From assembly GCA_030264375.1 (NCBI GenBank), contig JASCQW010000128.1:14453771-14517770 (forward strand): a stretch of 64,000 nucleotides of DNA. Direction: 5' to 3'. The notes beneath the pieces were generated by a model that saw only the letters and a list, made by a program, of their open reading frames with translations, was not told where the DNA came from and did no database searches. Of this stretch, positions 241-22,208 are shown in pieces. The DNA comes from Carcharhinus longimanus (Eukaryota). The first letter of the stretch is position 1. Every line of letters begins with the position of its first letter. The translations under genes were made by a program, and so were the position numbers.

Positions 241-1627
241 TGATGTGGAGATGCTGGTGTTGGACTGGGGTAAACACAGTAAGGAGTCTCACAACACCAG
301 GTTAAAGTCCAATGGTTTATTTGTAGCAAACACCACTAGCTTTCGGAACTGGCTGTTTCTTTGTCAGGTGGGTGGGAATTCTGATCACAAACAGGGCAAA
401 TAAAGACACAAATTCAATTTACATGAATAATGATCGGAATGTGACTCTTTACAGTTAATCAAGTCTTAAAGGTACAGACAATGTGAGTGGAGAGAGCATT
501 AAGCACAGGTTAAAAAGATGTCAATTGTTTCCACACAGGAAAGTTGGTGAGATTTTGCAAATCCAGGCAAGTTGTGGGGTTTATAGATAGTGTGACATGA
601 ACCCAAGATCCTGGTTGAGGCCGACCTCATGTGTGCGGAACTTGGCTATCAATCTCTGCGCTGTCATGTGTCATGAAAGCCGCCTTGGAGAACGCTTACC
701 CGAAGATCAGAGGCTGAATGCCGGTGACCGCTGAAGTGTTCCCCAACAGGAAGAGAACGGTCTTGCCTGGTGATTGTTGAGCAGTGTTCATTCATCTGTT
801 GTCGTAGCTTCTGCATGGTCTCCCCAATGTACCATGNNNNNNNNNNNNNNNNNNNNNNNNNNNNNNNNNNNNNNNNNNNNNNNNNNNNNNNNNNNNNNNN
901 NNNNNNNNNNNNNNNNNNNNNNNNNNNNNNNNNNNNATCTGTGGTCGTAGCTTCTGCATGGTCTCCCCAATGTACCATGCCTCGGGTCATCCTTTCCTGC
1001 AGTGTATCTATTCCTGTAGCGTTGTCTACCTGATACACTGCAGGAAAGCATGTCCCGAGGTGTGGTACATTGGGGAGACCATGCAAACGCTACGACAACA
1101 GATGAATGAACACTGCTCGACAATCACCAGGCAAGACTGTTCTCTTCCTGTTAAGGAACACTTCAGCGGTCATGGGCATTCAGCTCTGATGTTCGGGTAA
1201 GCGTTCTCCAAGGCAGCCTTCACGTCACACGACAGCACAGAGTCGCTGAGCAGAGACTGATAGCCAAGTTCCGCACACATGAGGGCGGCCTCAACTGGGA
1301 TCTTGGGTTCATGTCACACTATCTGTAACCCCCACAACTTGCCTGGACTTGTAAAATCTCATTAACTTTCCTGACTGGAAACAATACACATCTTTTTAAC
1401 CTATGCTTAATGCTCCCTCCACTCGCATCTTCTGTATCTTCAAGACTTGATTAGCTGTAAAGACTCACATTCCAATCATTATTAATGTAAATTGAGTTTG
1501 TGTCTTTATATGCGCTGTTTGTGATCAGAACTCCTAACCACCCGACAAAGGAACAGCATTCCAAAAGCTAGTGGCATTGCTACATCTCACACTGGACTTC
1601 AACCTGGTGTTGTGAGCCTTTTTACTG
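241..1627. mobile_element. Penelope-like retroelement remnant in inverted (fold-back) arrangement, GIY-YIG endonuclease region
   Basis: Left arm ~241-1008 (-) and right arm ~1032-1627 (+) are reverse complements. Both encode the GIY-YIG segment WYIGETMQ...LPV.EHFSGH, and the right arm also shows VVYLIHCRKACPEV. Flanking direct repeat TGATTTTGAAAT at 230-241 and 1628-1639. Confidence 0.9.
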
Positions 1628-3275
1628 TGATTTTGAAATACCATGAAAAGTGCTCACCATTTCTTCCATTTTCCAGTGAAAGCAACCACGCTTTACAAGA
1701 TTAAAAGTAAATCGGATATTTAGTAACATTTGATGGACTAGACAAGTGCTTCGTTTCTAGGAGTGAACAGGAAGAGAAAAATTTGTGAATGTCTTACAAG
1801 GATATAAGATTTTGGATCACAGAATAGACCACGGGATGACAGAATAGACCACGAGGTCACCTTTTCAAGATTATTTTGAATGTATTTAGATATTACACAG
1901 TAATATATAAAACCCCATGTTTCTTGTATCTCCGCTATGAGTGACACTTTTCACCTAGAATTCCTATTTAAGATGTGTTAGGTTCTGATTGCAAATGAAG
2001 CTCTAAATTGCTGTTGGCAAGATACTTTGTTGGAGTTGTAACTTCTGACCTAATCTGTGTGATGGAAAAAGAGCACACAGACATAGGCATGCATGCATGC
2101 ATCTCTGTGCACACATATAAAAATCTTACATTGGCGTGTGCTTCTGGTGTACCAGACCCTACTTTGTCCTGTCAAATTTTTGTTACACATTGTTAGTTTC
2201 TTCCAATGGCAAACATGTGTAACAGAATTACCCATCTAGATATGCACAATATGTATCAATGTCTTAACCTCAGTGGTCTGCCATCCTTCAGTACTTCAAG
2301 AGTCAAAAATATAAAAGTAGAGAGGCAATTGCTTTTGGAACTTGCCAGCAATGGCCCATCTGCCAACCTTCCTGATTAGCACCTATTAACTTCTAATTGA
2401 CTTTAGGTTGTGCCAATTGACAACAATTGAGCACTGTGACCTAGAAGGAACAAGTCAGATAAACACAGCCGTATCAGTAATATCTTATATATTGTGAAGT
2501 TTATGTTGTGAAGTTTATTGTGACGTCTCTTTATGAAGTACTTTACCATCTGATTTCCCTTCAGAAATAGAAAGGATTAAGTCTTTTTTTCTCTCGCCAC
2601 TCATATTTACATATCTTGTTGCCTTCAGGTTAACTCCCATCAGGAGAGTTGGATGTTGCATTAACAGTGGTCGAATGGAGATTCATGGTCATCTATTATG
2701 AGGCATGAATTAAGGATCTGCCAAGTTTGAATGATTTGGTTAAAAATATGATCTAAATTGACACAACTCGATCCTTAAAATAATAATAAATGTCTCCACG
2801 ATTATAAGCTGGGAGTGCAATTTATCTTCTTAATCGTAACTCTCCAGTCATTTTATCACAATATTATGAAGTGTTTTCAAGAAACATATTCTTGCTTTTT
2901 TCTTGATTGTCCAACTAGTCATGTTCATGGAAATAAGACTATCAGAAATTTAGCATTTGAATTTGAATCCCTGTTTTTGCATTCATTCAAATTAAGTTGC
3001 TTTCATGGGTGGTATCTCATCCCAAGTTCATTGCTAGGTCGTAAGATAGATCATTTAAGAGTTGCTGCAGTTTGTAAGAATGGGGCAACATCCTGGTCAA
3101 AGTTCATTTGACCTGCTAGCTATTTAATTGGAATTGCGTGGAAAGTTGGCTGAGGGGGAAAATGGGGGGAAAAAAACTGATTCAAATATTGTGTAAGCAA
3201 AAAACCCATGTAAGGTCTGGGGCCGGAATTTGCTGGCAACATGATGTGTCATAGAATCCCTAGGTGGAGCTTATT

Positions 3276-5246: not shown

Positions 5247-7983
5247 ACCATTCTCCAACAAATTATGGCCTTAATACACCACTGGAAGGGCCAACAAAGC
5301 ACATGTCAATATCCATTTCTTGACAAATGAACAACACAAGGTACAAATGCCATGAAAATGTATCAATAGGACACTTGGATTGTGTGAAAATGTTGAACTT
5401 TTCTATTCAAACTAATACAGAAAATGTTGGAAGATCTCAGCAGATCTGACGGCGTCTGTGGGGAGAAAATAGAGCCAAAGTTTTGAGTCTAGATGGCACT
5501 TCATCAGAAATTTTCGTTCTCTTCTCTCCAAAAACAAGCTTGATCAGTTTTTTCCATGAGTATTGAGCAGTGACTAAATTTTACCTTAAGGACTTGCAAA
5601 GCTTTTAAGGTTTGATTTAATTTTGTTTTCAATATAACTTTTTGATTGTTTTTTCCTCCTTGTAAATTGCTTATTGCAATTCATGCTCTCCAGCTGTAGA
5701 AGTGGACAAGTGCAAATTATCAACAATGGGAATTAGCATCCTTGCAGCTTCAGGATTAGTAAGAGATATCGTTTGGGGAGCAGAGTGGGTCAGACGTGAT
5801 TTATGCTCTCTCGTTCTTGCTCCTTTTCCAAGATGAATCAATTCTACATTTAATAGAGCTTTTAAAACTTCAGTGTGGGGACCATTTGAAAATATTGGCA
5901 CACTTCTTTGGACTCCCTGCGAATACTGATGTGCCATCATAGGATCTTTGATTCTAACTTGCAAACGTTTTGCCTGTTCATCTACAACTGTAAACCTTCT
6001 TTAACATGAGTACAGAGCGTATGTAAAAGTTGAAGTCACAAACCACCTGCATTCTTTCTGGAGACCCTCCTGTTGTAGCCGAGTGGAAATGTTTCCATCT
6101 GAGGAAAAGAGATTTGAATTATGGTTAATCTTGTGACTCAAACCCATGTTCTTTTGGTTGAAAACTCAATGGCTTAAGTGATGTTTCCACATTAAGGATG
6201 TTGCATTAATGCAAGTTGTTGCTGTTGAAGTATAACGGTGTAGATTCAGTGTACGTTCACTGACACTGAGAATTTTTTTATTTTTGGGTAATGGACATCT
6301 CTGGCAGGCCAGAGTTATGGCCCATCCCAAATTACACTTGAGAAAGTGATGTAGCATCGAACTGCTGTTGCGTAATGAGCTGGTGATGATGGATGAACAC
6401 TCATATATGTCCAAGTAAAGATGGTTTTAACTTGGTGGAATTGGAATTGTTGCTGTTCCCATTTGCCTGCTGGAGCTGTCCTTCTAAAATCTAGTTGCTG
6501 AAACATGCAAAGTGGCATAATATTAATAACTTTCTAACATGTACAATTCATGGAGCTACTACCGAAAAGCTTATCATGACTGACAAACATAATCGGCCAC
6601 ATTGAATGTTTCCAAATTGTACAAAGCTCTATGTTCAGTAACAATTGTCTGCTTTTCCAGTTCTGTGAAAGCCTTTTGAACATTGCACAATTGCATTGCA
6701 GAATCTACAAAGTTACTAAACAGAACCATAACATTCAAATATGCAATGTTTAATTGAAGGAATTGTAACCTGCAAATCAGAACAAGGGAAAGCTGGCTGG
6801 ATCTGACACACATTGAATTCTTTCCCCTCAGGAAATGCCTCGAGAAGCATTTCAAACACATGCACCTTGCTGACCTAGGAAGTAATAATTTTGTGATCTT
6901 TACCGGTGCAGTTGTTGAACTTATAGTCATCGCTGGGTGCTTCCTGCATTGGTCTTGGAAGAGGAAGGAAGGATGCGGTAGTGTCCTCAGGGGGAGGGGG
7001 TTGAAATCAGTGCTTACTTAATTCAAATGCAGATACAAGAACGAGTTTATTAATTCCAGGTTGTACAGAGATTATTATCACACTTGTTTATTGGCAATGT
7101 GGATATGTTTTTGTTGTATCATTTGTGAGGAAAATGAACATTTCAGAACTAAGCATGTAATACAAGTTTAAAAATATGTTTAGAACATTGTCCACTTCTG
7201 ATGATGTATATTAATACCACAACCTTCTGAAAGATGGTCCACACTGGTTCCAGCAAGTAAAAGTGCTTTATGTTCATGCCAACTAAGAAGCTAATTAGAG
7301 TACCAACAATGGCTTTTGAATAACTATTTGAAATTCATGATTTTTCTTTCCAAATTTAACTTCAGATTGTAGAAATAATTCCAGTGCCATACCCCATTTT
7401 GTCCACTGTCAGAGGGATTCTCGGCCTTGTGACTCCACTCCTACTACTGATGATCAAGCCACGGGCCCAGCCCAACAGCAAAACCTCCAAAATGGAGATT
7501 GGACCACAGAGCTGGTGATTGGATTCAGTGTCGTGCTTAGTATGACTTGATCCCAACAGCTTGGTTTCTGTCTCTCATTGGGAGCTGCAAGAAGCAGGAG
7601 TGAAGGGATGTCTGCAGCTTGAGAAAAGTGACTGACTGAGAAACCACACATCTCAAACTTTCACACTCCGTTCTCTCTCCCCCTGATCTGTGTCACTGGA
7701 GATCAACATTTCACACTTGGCTCAATTGACTGCCATTCTTTAATGCAATGTTAAACATTTTCTTTATCAGTTGGAGCTGTAGCTGATGTCAGTTACAATA
7801 AACCTTAATTAAAGTGAAGCTTAAAAACAAGAGAATAGTTGTTCAGGAGCATCTACTGTTCTTCATGATGAAATCATCTCAGGTTCTATATGTTTAATTC
7901 AGTCATTTCCTCAAGAGACTTGCAAGATCTAACAAAACTGAACATACTTAGTTCAGAGATTTTATGTGGTACTGAGTATTTTA

Positions 7984-8088
7984 GGGATGCCGGCGTTGGA
8001 CTGGGGTAAACACAGTACATAAGAACATAAGAAATAGGAGCAGGAGTAGGCCAACTAGCCCTTCGAGCCTGCCCCGCCATTCAATAAG
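7984..8088 (-). mobile_element. Penelope-like tail fused to CR1 LINE 3' end (runs into gap)
   Basis: gatgccggcgttggactggggtaaacacagta followed by cataagaacataagaaataggagcaggagtaggcc (reverse of a CR1 3' tandem tail). Confidence 0.7.
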
Positions 8089-8188
8089 NNNNNNNNNNNN
8101 NNNNNNNNNNNNNNNNNNNNNNNNNNNNNNNNNNNNNNNNNNNNNNNNNNNNNNNNNNNNNNNNNNNNNNNNNNNNNNNNNNNNNNNN

Positions 8189-8403
8189 ATGTCTGTGTGG
8201 AGTTTGCACATTCACCCCGTGTCAGCGTGGGTTTCCTCTGGGTGCTCCGGCTTCCTCTCGAAAGATGGGCAGGCTAGGTGCATTAGCCATGCTAAGTTCT
8301 CCCTCAGCGCACCCAATCAGGTGCTGGAAGTACTGGATGTTCGCAGTAACTTCATTGCAGTGTTAATGTAAGCCTATTTGTGACACTAATAAATAAACTT
8401 TAA
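8189..8403 (+). mobile_element. HE1-like V-SINE (5' part in gap), alternative tail
   Basis: gtctgtgtggagtttgcacattc...ggtttcctctgggtgctccgg...tgtgacactaataaataaacttt. Confidence 0.85.
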
Positions 8404-8410
8404 AAGAAGC

Positions 8411-8631
8411 CACCCAGGCCCTATTCCCACACATTTAGCCTGCCAACCTAGGGTCAAATTGGGTGGCCAATCAACCTGATGTGCACAGCTTTGGACTGTG
8501 GGAGGAAACCAGAGCACGCGGAGAAAATCCATGCAGAGATGGGGAGAATGTACAGAGTCGACACAGACAGTGACTGAGCCCAAAATTGAACCTGGCGCTG
8601 TGAGGCAGCAGTGCTAACAACCATGCCGCCC
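8411..8631 (-). mobile_element. HE1-like V-SINE, truncated
   Basis: Reverse of head (ggttgttagcactgctgcctcacagcgccagg) and V-domain. Confidence 0.8.
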
Positions 8632-9331
8632 TAATATTGCTTTTATCTCAGTCTTTAAAAAAGTATCCTTTGATAAACAATCCTTCATTCCGCAACAGCA
8701 CACAATAAGTGCAGATTTAAATTGGATTATAAAATTTTAATTTGTATGGGTGTAACAAAAATACAAACCTATCAAATCCTCTTTGTGCATAGGAATGAAA
8801 ACATTTGTACTTTTTTGACTTTTCCAGTCGTGATTTCAGTCCTGCCTTAATTTGGAAACCAATAAGATATTTCAGAGATACATTTCAGACAGGGACAACT
8901 TCAATGTTTCCCAATTAACTTTTTCTGACCTATAATTTACAAAACTAATACATTGCTCCAAGTCACAACAAAAGATTTAATGATTTTTGGGTTATTTTGG
9001 AAATCACATTTTTCAAATTGATACCAACCTGAGCAATTGGGATGGTGGTCCTGATCACCTATTAATCTTGAAGCTTTGGTTTGCATAATCAATTAATGTG
9101 TACACTTCAAGATTAAATATTGAAGTTATCAATACCTTTTTTTAAAGTTTGTTCCCTTCTTACAGGATGTCGGTGTCACCAGCTGGGCTCACATTTATTG
9201 CCCAACTCTAGTTGCCCTTCAGAAGATGGTGGTGAGCTGTCTTCTTGAACAGTGCATTTCCTGTAGGGGGAATGGGGAGTGAATGGCGGAGGTGGGTGGG
9301 CAGTGGATGGGCCATTTAGCTTGCTAATTGC

Positions 9332-18938: not shown

Positions 18939-19705
18939 TATGTGTCTGGCTGCAGCAGTGCTGCAACAAAGAATCAATCATAGAGTCATGCTGCTCGGAA
19001 AAGCCTTCTAACCCCTCATTGTGCCATCTTTTTGAGAGAGCTATCCAATTATTCCCATGCTCTTGCTCTTTCCCTTTCCCACAGCCCCAATAAAAGGCCC
19101 TTCGCCAGGTCCAGACTGTCAACCACTATTGTTTTGCCAGTAATTTCTCATGGAGGGTATAACTCATTCAGTGTTTACTGCTGACTTGGCTATACCACTG
19201 GCTTTCAATCTGTAAGGAGGGGGCAAGGCAGGGATCTGCATCACTCTTGTTTTTGAACAACATGCTCCATGCTGGGTCTGAGTCCAAAGCTATAACTTAA
19301 ATCATACCCACCTAGATAGTGGGGAAAAAACTGGCTTGGGAGCAATGTCCCCTCCCTTGTAAAATGTCATTGTTGTGTGCGGCTCATTTTTCCAACATGC
19401 CGAATTTTGTTGTGTGGCAAGGCAAGCTGAGCATTTTGGGCAAAAACCTCCTGTGCGATATTTCCTGGCTGCTGTGTAGCCATGCATGTGTGCAGCCGAG
19501 CAGAGGTGGTGAGGTGGTGCCAGACATAGATAGAGGTGTCGCTTCAGTTGTTTTATCTGCCTCTATGGCATCAATAGGTCTAGATTGAAAACATTAGTGT
19601 CATCTAGTGACCTCTTCAAGTCTTACAATTTCTCACAATTTCATTGTAATATGTATTGTACATGTTATGTGGAAGAGGATATGAGGATAGGATGGGCAAA
19701 GTGGA

Positions 19706-20077
19706 TTTTTTTTTAATTGGTACATTTCAGTACTTTATTTCTAATCAGAAAGTCAATTCATGGTCCCCACGTGAAGGACAAACCAGATCCAAGCTGACAA
19801 GACAAGGCATTACGTCTTGGGCTCATTCAAACAAGGTCTAAGCTGACAGGATGAGGCATTGCACTCCCCTCCCAGGCTTGATCTAATGCTTCATCTTAGC
19901 CAAAAGGCCCAGATGGCTTTGAAAAATTGCATCAGGTAAAGCCACGCTTTAACCTCATTGGGTACCCTGATCCTTACTCTCCCCTAGCCTGGGCAAACCA
20001 CAGTTGCAGGCGTCAGCACATCCCCAGCGTAATAGGCTAGCCTCATCTCCTGCCAGATCATGTTTCACCACTGCCAG
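19706..20077 (-). mobile_element. Chimeric U1/U2 snRNA-derived poly(A) retroposon (SINEU-like candidate)
   Basis: Minus strand carries U1-like CTGGCAGTGGTGAAACATGATC, GGATGTGCTGACGCCTGC and GTGGTTTGCCCAGG, then exact U2 5' 17-mer GGCCTTTTGGCTAAGAT, a body with an internal repeat, AATAAA and A9. It splits a CR1 3' tail. Confidence 0.75.
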
Positions 20078-22208
20078 TTTGAGTTAGAAAATCAGCTACA
20101 ATACTGTTGATCGACAGACCAGGCTCAAGGGCTGAATGACCACTGAACTGACACTCAGAGAGATGACAGAGCCCAGGACTTTGCTAGGCCCCTGACCAAT
20201 GATGTGCCCCTGCGTCCATTCATCCCAGAGCTAGTAGAGTTGTGAGCACCAGGAAGGGATGTCAATATCCCTCCTCAGACTGCAAAGCTGACTGGAGGAG
20301 CACCACCTCCTTTTGCCCTGAAGTGATGGTGCCATCACTCAAATGCAATGAGGCCAACACTGCATGGATGGCATCCACAATCAAGACCATGGTGCGTGAG
20401 GTGTACTCCATGGTGGAGGTGTCCATTCCATGGTTCAGTTTATGATCTCCATGGCTGAGGGCATGAGTTCCATTGTGCAGGGTGTCAACTGCATGGTGCA
20501 GGCACAGGTGGGAATCCATTAGTGTCTGTGCCAGATGATGGTGGGGCTGGCCCTCTATCCAATGGAAGAGCCCGGGTGCTCCTGTGCACCTGAAGGGAAG
20601 AGGATCGGCAGGAGCACAGCCTGAGGCCATCCACTGGAGAGACCCTGGGAGGGTGTCCAGCCCATCTGACATTTGCCTCCAAGCTAGTGATACACCTCCA
20701 GCTATGCTCACTGAAGAGGGCAGCACTCTAACACCTGTGCAGCCTGAAAGCAGGTCCTGGACCCCTCAGGGGGTGCCCTGTAAGGTCATCTCAGACAACA
20801 GGGTATGGAAGTCCGCAGGTTGCCTCAACCTCAACTATGGTTCTTGGGATACACGTAAATATAGCAGGAGGGTGAGGAAAAGTAAGAAACAATGGACAGT
20901 TAGTGGGCACGGGTGAACCTTGACAATAGTACAGATAAGTCTCACCGTTGTAATATTGTATTAAACATCACCTAGTTCACCCATACTGATCCTCTGCACT
21001 ATCAGGTCATGACACCAAGCTCTGCAAATTTGGTGCTTCATCCCTGTGCAGCGTGGGAATGGCAGCACTATGTCTGACCCACTCTGATGACATAGTCAAG
21101 CTGTGCTGCTGCTGGCACGGGCCCCTGGCCTGCCTCCCCCATCCATAGGTGGTGACATGGAAATATACCTGTGGCTCTGCTCCCGGAGAGACATGGATCC
21201 AGTCTCCCCCTCCCTCCGCAGGGCAGTGTCCTGGCCACGTGTAGCAGCACATGGATGTCACTGCTGCTGACCAATCACCATCAGTAGAATACCTAACTCA
21301 ACTGGCTCCAGAATCATAAACTGAAAGGAAGAGAACATCAAATTGAGTGCTGAGGATTCCTGACAGGGCCCCGAGCCTCAGGCCTCTCAGCACCTAAGTA
21401 GGTGTCTTTCCACTAAGCCTCACTCCCTCCTCTCTCACACAAGAGCCACTTCCCCACACTCGCCCCTTTCAAATCTGCTTGAATGAATGACTTTGACCCT
21501 TGAGAGTCTCAGCGGGCTCGAAACTAAATTAAATAAACTGAAGGACAAAACAATAAGGACAGCCCCTGAAAGGGGTACCGCCCGAAGCAAAGCACAAACA
21601 AAACTTAAAATATGAAATCAAAGGAGTGCTTCAAAAGGATTTTTAAAAAACTGGGCTCAAATCAGTGACACACTGGTGTATTGCTGTGCTGACTTAATTG
21701 GTCAGGCAACTGGCTTTCTCTTATGGCAGGTGAAGCACACCTGATTTGTGTCAAGATTGCAATTAGCAAGTCAACTTCATCCCAAGAGGGCACCCCCATT
21801 CCCCCCAGCTCACAAGAGCTGTGGATTTAACCAGCCATCTAACTGGAATAGCCAGTTTCCTGACACTCACACCTCCATAACCAGTCCGTGATCTTCCATA
21901 CAGTTCATCCCCTTTGTCATCACAGTGCTACCAGAGTAGGGGTTCATTTTCACTGCAGTCGTCCTCCCCCAAGTGAGAGGATATTCAGGCCTCATGAGGC
22001 AGAGAAGCACCCTCTGTCAGAGTCCTCCAGTAGACTTTCATGGGACCCAACTCAAGAACCTCACAGTTGTTCCCAGTGCTGACCGTCTGTATTCACCTGC
22101 TCCCACTCACTTCTGGAAGGGCAATCCCTCAGTGGCCTAACAAGGAGGGCACAGGAGGTGGCACCTGCATGCAAGCCACCAGACTCCTTTCAACCTAGAG
22201 GGTAGCCA

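Follow-up and report, generated by a model that had tools for sequence, protein, structure and literature searches.

What is a 372-base unit that joins pieces of two small nuclear RNAs (snRNAs) and ends in a run of A doing inside an older repeat of a shark genome, and how did it get there? The window analysed here, a 64,000-nucleotide stretch of Carcharhinus longimanus contig JASCQW010000128.1, carries this unit on its minus strand, and a first-pass annotation had described it as a poly(A)-tailed retroposon headed by a U1 and U2 chimera. The unit is one old, dead copy of a dispersed, A-tailed retroposon family, here named subfamily A. This family is a non-coding repeat built from U1 and U2 fragments and was probably copied into its sites as RNA by the machinery of a Tx1-type LINE. 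A Pfam scan of 14 of the 30 window open reading frames of at least 130 amino acids returned no match and no host gene.

snRNA content of the element

U1 and U2 reference genes were extracted from the same genome, and the window copy was scored against 1,000 shuffles. The U1 head, the displaced U1 segment (bases 38-57), U2 bases 5-40 and a match of the body to U2 bases 22-123 all scored above every shuffle (p=0.001 each). The last of these had been overlooked by the first-pass annotation, which treated the body as a separate module; the body is instead decayed U2, and the element is thus a U1/U2 mosaic (Table 1). All of the stretches quoted in that annotation were recovered on the minus strand, comprising the U1-like stretches at 20077-20056 and 20044-20002, the displaced piece at 20001-19988, the exact 17-mer of the U2 5' end at 19909-19893, the AATAAA at 19739-19734 and the A9 at 19714-19706.

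Table 1. Parts of the subfamily A copy in the window and the flanking repeat (window positions)
Feature	Position	Strand	Remarks
U1 bases 9-38	20049..20077	-	Window copy lacks the first 8 bases; family consensus begins at U1 base 1
U1 bases 50-95 (stem-loop II region)	20003..20048	-	Fused to base 38; bases 39-49 absent
Displaced U1 bases 38-51	19988..20001	-	p=0.001 window copy, p=0.04 consensus
Second U1 paralog, bases 14-34	19966..19985	-	18/21 match, p=0.0005
Linker	19916..19965	-	No U1/U2 match; partly common to subfamily B (p=0.0005)
U2 bases 5-40, branch-point-pairing hexamer mutated	19880..19915	-	Holds exact 17-mer 19909-19893
54-base internal duplication, first copy	19831..19885	-	p=0.0005 vs second copy; missing from C-type copies
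Second duplication unit and remaining body, decayed U2 ~19-111	19740..19830	-	p=0.002
AATAAA, then 15-base stretch	19719..19739	-	5-bp hairpin in consensus; damaged in window copy
A9 tail	19706..19714	-	No target-site duplication detectable
Older interrupted repeat, left part (CR1-like 3' end)	19674..19705	+	Joined-flank search
Older interrupted repeat, right part (CR1-like 3' end)	20078..20137	+	Joined-flank search

The family consensus (approximately 390 bases, non-coding) is ordered as U1 1-38, U1 50-95, U1 38-51, bases 14-34 of a second U1 paralog, a 50-base linker, U2 5-40, the 54-base duplication, decayed U2 19-111, AATAAA, a short hairpin and an A tail. Its head starts at U1 base 1 and is identical to the own-genome U1 of locus L034 at 80 of 84 aligned bases. 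Two of the finer features proposed earlier are borne out: the duplicated body unit is the 54-base internal duplication (p=0.0005, first versus second copy), and the U1 echo GGGGAGA..GATCA is an 18/21 match to bases 14-34 of the second U1 paralog (consensus, p=0.0005), a fragment that is near-intact in loci L216 and L233. The TTACCTG and Sm-like echoes, which fall in the linker, are by contrast at chance level (p 0.5-0.8). Within the body, the window copy has suffered deletions of 5 and 16 bases, and the U2 branch-point hexamer is missing from all 30 subfamily A copies examined.

Covariance searches with Rfam, proposed as a check of the snRNA assignment, gave a divided answer. For the window copy they returned only U2 at E=1.6 and no U1 match up to E=10; six of ten sister loci gave U1 matches, with E<=0.002 in three and a best value of E=7e-5, and none of these matches reached the gathering score. 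The description of the U1 head as permuted likewise stands in part. The displaced piece is present, and it is predicted to re-pair with U1 16-28 such that stem I is closed around stem-loop II (fold, z=-3.2); the arrangement is better explained if an older U1 head received an insertion than by a circular permutation.

A dispersed retroposon family

Many dispersed copies exist in the genome, which disposes of the concern that the unit might be a single pseudogene. A first look yielded 2,913 candidates, and each of the 40 that were scored matches the window unit, the 39 non-self copies at 77-85%. Thirty aligned copies have common boundaries at both ends and differing flanks. Genome-wide counts with three exact patterns were 18, 65 and 98, reversed controls giving 0, and the pattern overlaps (1, 2 and 6) lead to Chapman estimates of approximately 630-930 copies (SE approximately 300; probably an underestimate). 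Subfamily A is accordingly estimated at some 600-1,000 copies. The 30 best copies diverge from its consensus by 9.8%, and 69 pattern-picked copies by 14%.

The insertions carry the marks of retroposition to differing degrees. Of the A copies picked by tail or body, 31 of 48 are 5'-truncated, and the 3' ends are fixed at the A tail. Target-site duplications at a score of at least 9 were found in 5 of 82 A copies (0.1 expected) and in 6 of 28 copies of the sister subfamily B (0.8 expected), several of them opening with an A run; the remaining 77 A copies, the window copy among them, show no clear duplication. An LTR or viral origin was rejected, because the element runs from an snRNA 5' end to an A tail and its 5' truncation is frequent. 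In a single case, a full-length A copy has a 5S rRNA-like sequence (L011:1377-1485) 5 bases upstream of it; Rfam scores this sequence at 44.8 bits, which is above gathering.

The window copy was inserted as a block into an older repeat, as had been proposed: its joined flanks form one repeat, and 6 of 10 matches span the junction (best E=2.5e-5). This interrupted repeat is presumably CR1, since the frames upstream of the joined-flank matches resemble the CR1 ORF2 end. Window positions 20140-20560, upstream of the CR1 piece, hold another element that is moderately repeated, with contig depth raised in four runs.

One or both junctions of the window insertion are bridged, with approximately 1-6% substitutions, by contigs from three labelled organisms (B, C and G) and from one further run, and all four runs stack thousands of contigs on the element. 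The family and the window copy are therefore both older than those splits. An empty orthologous site was sought in the four runs, and all four carry the insertion. The rate of 7e-10 per generation given in the available part of PMC10587355 is not applicable to absolute dating of the family.

Sister forms and the origin of the body

Sister forms with a common body comprise subfamily B, which is younger and headed by U2, form C, which is U2 only, and forms with a native-order U1 1-50 head. The head of subfamily B is U2 1-40 (39/40 identical). Its consensus of 306 bases is likewise A-tailed and non-coding, its core is 74% identical to that of A, and its copies are 4.7% diverged from their own consensus. 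Of 30 B copies, 27 retain the hexamer; folding predicts that it pairs with an inverted copy of itself and is thereby sequestered in a hairpin (z=-4.3). Among ten copies with a duplication-free junction, eight are U2-only or nearly so, and their U2 match reaches base 169 (p=0.0005), which reveals the origin of the body as U2. In a tree, the A, B and C bodies group together against four U2 genes (support 100/100), the body being closest to the U2 type of locus L046; the branching among the three gives no order of subfamilies.

Heads have been exchanged repeatedly. Of 89 copies selected by the start of the linker, a sample that favours the permuted form, the permuted head is carried by 76 and a U1 1-50 head in native order by 5. 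An added or replaced U1 or U2 head was found on 7 of 78 pattern-picked copies, and further extra heads occur at L225, L244 and L268. At L245:1503-1790, U1 1-90 in native order is fused to the linker on a duplication-free body.

Other snRNA-derived sequences were encountered in the same searches. Locus L050 and seven loci among L051-L059 hold full-length U2 retrocopies with approximately 35 bases of downstream flank in common with the L046 gene, and this common flank suggests that 3'-extended U2 precursors were retroposed. The U1 and U2 sequences on the short contigs L031, L036, L041, L047 and L048 are quite unlike the chromosomal variants, and may represent either paralogs that have diverged or sequence from other organisms contained in the assembly.

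A probable Tx1-type partner LINE

A search of the genome with the zf-RVT domain revealed an A-tailed LINE family, the longer relatives of which have endonuclease, reverse transcriptase and zf-RVT domains. This is the layout of the Tx1/L1 type, and the clade name Tx1 is a provisional one, assigned by domain layout and tail. No full-length copy was recovered: candidates were rejected, their apparent long open frames being assembly gaps. The nearest named proteins are those of the sharks Cetorhinus, Hemiscyllium and Heterodontus, followed by amphibians at approximately 44%; no crocodilian name occurs among the relatives listed, most of which are unnamed.

Two sets of observations make this LINE the likely partner of the element, in line with the earlier proposal of a poly(A)-type mover (L1 or Tx1). 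The first is adjacency to subfamily B. B-type sequence lies downstream in 5 of the 30 best zf-RVT loci, in four of them directly behind the LINE tail, and the Tx1 tail precedes 2 of 29 other B loci. No Tx1 tail was found beside any of 30 A copies examined, so the link to A runs via its sister subfamily.

The second is the position of LINE copies within snRNA sequence. At L098 (approximately 7200-9030, minus strand; G000:C32:64138130-64148100) the LINE tail directly precedes U2 base 39, and the train continues with a second U2 that has a bare A run at base 39 and then a truncated LINE. The other LINE tails among the 11 inspected adjoin other sequence, and most copies of the LINE lie outside U2. 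At L223 (approximately 1500-2010, minus strand; G000:C81:91028014-91031126) a Tx1-type 3' end with A8 directly precedes base 38 of a U1 gene that has a gene-type upstream flank; the 5' junction of the LINE falls in an assembly gap. L223 was the only match when insertions at U1 37/38 were sought genome-wide. U1 base 38 is also the exact start of the displaced piece in subfamily A. Because a Tx1 element was found inserted there (one locus) and the displaced piece starts there, the A head is most simply read as an insertion of U1 50-95 at this site of an older head.

A LINE sharing the 3' part of the element (approximately 190 nt), which the first-pass annotation had suggested looking for, was not found. 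The element and the Tx1 tail have only the poly(A)-signal region in common (p=0.005 raw), and a common 3' tail was rejected as the comparison fell to p=0.15 once AATAAA was held fixed.

The family might instead have been moved by another poly(A)-type LINE, of the L1 lineage or elsewhere in Tx1, the Tx1 neighbours then reflecting a liking for A-rich sites. Several duplications do begin with an A run, A copies were never seen beside this Tx1, and only the B copy is enclosed by the duplication at L107 and L113, which places its insertion in an A tail that already existed. However, the 30 best zf-RVT loci largely form a single alignable family in their downstream parts, an adjacency of 5 in 30 is far above expectation for a few thousand copies in 2.7 Gb, and the same LINE sits at both snRNA sites (U2 38/39 and U1 37/38). 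We consider a different mover unlikely.

Relation to known snRNA-derived elements

SINEU elements, described from crocodilians only (Kojima 2015, PMC4494074; statements here follow the available part of that paper), have U1 or U2 heads, U1-then-U2 structures, recurrent head addition and Tx1 mobilisation. The shark family shows these features of the class: an snRNA head, a non-coding length below 500 bases with poly(A), amplification from master copies and recurrent heads. The comparison with SINEU-1 to SINEU-3 is by published description. Like the shark family, SINEU-1 and SINEU-2 have U1/U2-derived 5' parts, fewer than 500 bases, an A tail and 5' truncation, as well as recurrent U1/U2 head addition, partial duplications, internal T runs, an inferred Tx1 partner and copies in the thousands or hundreds; SINEU-2 is, like shark subfamily A, U1 followed by U2 (PMC4494074). 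In the elasmobranch family, unlike these, the heads fit shark U1 paralogs and U1 38-51 is displaced behind 50-95. The 3' half of SINEU-1 is left unassigned in the available text (PMC4494074), whereas the shark body was traced to U2 through the U2-only form. A Mariner-N4-like target is reported for 13-90% of crocodilian SINEU copies (PMC4494074). No such preference is seen in the shark family: an all-against-all comparison of 120 flanks gave small clusters only, none of more than five flanks and no dominant transposon target, Mariner-N4 itself not being a query. SINEU-3 is U2-only, with the first 32 bases kept and the next stretch missing (PMC4494074), much as the hexamer is lost in the U2-only C form; it has a 50-base deletion, whereas C-type copies retain decayed U2 to approximately base 169 and internal duplications, with no single-transposon target.

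The U2 38/39 position has its own precedent, being the common junction of the Keno (Tx1 clade) and Utopia LINEs (PMC4640811, available part), and the L098 tail directly before U2 base 39 is alike. The window element differs from these in being non-coding and dispersed, and the partner LINE in lying mostly outside U2, with one copy before U1 base 38. For U1, the available part of PMC4640811 lists only Dada-U1, a DNA transposon.

Common descent with SINEU-1 or SINEU-2 of crocodilians, whether by horizontal transfer or from a deep ancestor, would account for the same design, the recurrent head addition and the Keno-related partner described for SINEU (PMC4494074). The details point elsewhere. The head fits an own-genome U1 variant (80/84) and the genome's own second U1 paralog, the body most resembles U2 of the L046 type, no dominant target matches the Mariner-N4 preference, and the nearest named LINE proteins are those of sharks and then amphibians. 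Homology with SINEU is improbable, and a separate origin is favoured by the match to shark U1 paralogs and the L046 U2 type, which makes the independent evolution suggested by the first-pass annotation likely.

Its claim of novelty may hold for the host and fails for the architecture. No report of an snRNA-derived SINE from sharks was found in the literature searched, which left most subscription papers outside; the available parts of PMC5381603, PMC5499810, PMC5786205 and PMC8869645 contain no mention of such an element, and the shark genome supplements PMC12361510 and PMC10620051 give no SINE subclasses. The U1-plus-U2 design is already known from SINEU-1 subfamilies and SINEU-2 (PMC4494074, available part), and it is quite possible that Repbase or Dfam holds an entry for the shark family.

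Transcription

Subfamily A contains internal T5 and T6 runs, and its AATAAA lies 15 bases ahead of the tail. Both features would fit transcription by polymerase II, and the T runs disfavour polymerase III. How SINEU is transcribed without an internal promoter is a stated open question (PMC4494074, available part).

In this respect the element could be a conventional SINE that gained from U2 sequence an internal promoter for polymerase III. In the core common to A and B, loose matches to the consensus A box and B box do lie approximately 70 bases apart (positions 186 and 259 in A, 123 and 194 in B). These short patterns were a post hoc observation, T4-T6 runs precede and follow the A box, and this box lies 185 bases inside A, so that no transcript could start from it at U1 base 1. 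We regard an internal promoter as very unlikely, and polymerase II transcription from an outside promoter is tentatively preferred here. No RNA source was listed for the element, which speaks neither for nor against its expression.

At none of the 59 loci examined (30 plus 29) did a family copy follow the complete promoter flank of a U1 or U2 gene; because several of the snRNA genes are on short contigs, this negative is weak. At L253:1475-1837 (plus strand) a B copy carries 19 bases like the upstream flank of a U2 gene and itself stands behind U2 bases 15-38, a hint that a master may have resided at a U2 locus.

Model of origin

Processed and chimeric snRNA pseudogenes, in which a LINE reverse transcriptase fuses snRNA 5' fragments to other RNA (PMC4494074, available part), resemble the element in kind; they are one-off events, whereas the shark family has hundreds of copies with common junctions and subfamily-diagnostic changes. 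That every copy arose independently by template switching, with no master copies, is scarcely credible: heads do vary and are re-added to single copies, and ordinary U1 and U2 retrocopies are present in the genome, yet most copies show the same gap of 11 bases, the same displaced piece and the same duplication and tail, the bodies cluster away from the U2 genes, B copies centre on a single consensus, and the common junctions appear largely to refute it.

We propose instead that the founder was a retroposed U2 without the branch-point-pairing hexamer. Heads would have been added repeatedly, through template switching to abundant U1 and U2 RNA or through insertion into snRNA sequence, and the permuted head of A may have formed when U1 50-95 entered, at base 37/38, an older head of U1 1-50 in native order. 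To reach new sites, the RNA would depend on a Tx1-type LINE, whose endonuclease and reverse transcriptase would do the copying. In the weakest step of the model, polymerase II would transcribe the masters from a promoter outside the element, that of a U1 or U2 gene being the most plausible, with the transcript ending at AATAAA.

A bolder version is possible though doubtful. A Keno-like Tx1 element would cut both U2 38/39 and U1 37/38. By placing cargo there in snRNA genes and snRNA heads it would build the heads, which would account for the permuted U1 and the U2 1-40 head, and set masters under snRNA promoters, giving rise to a SINE lineage of the sharks' own; loss or hairpin-masking of the hexamer, seen in each subfamily, would then reflect selection against interference with splicing.

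Implications

The element reveals no new host function. As far as our literature search reached, snRNA-headed SINEs are in print only from crocodilians. A likely independent shark lineage, with intermediates preserved as U2-only, native-order U1, permuted U1 and U2-headed forms, turns what was an oddity into a repeatable route. The capture of the partner LINE at U2 38/39 and U1 37/38 supplies concrete points to test, and insertions common to shark species are possible presence/absence markers. Should one LINE indeed cut both snRNA sites, it would be the first U1-targeting LINE described, as far as that search reached, and would provide a general recipe for the origin and transcription of promoterless snRNA-headed SINEs.
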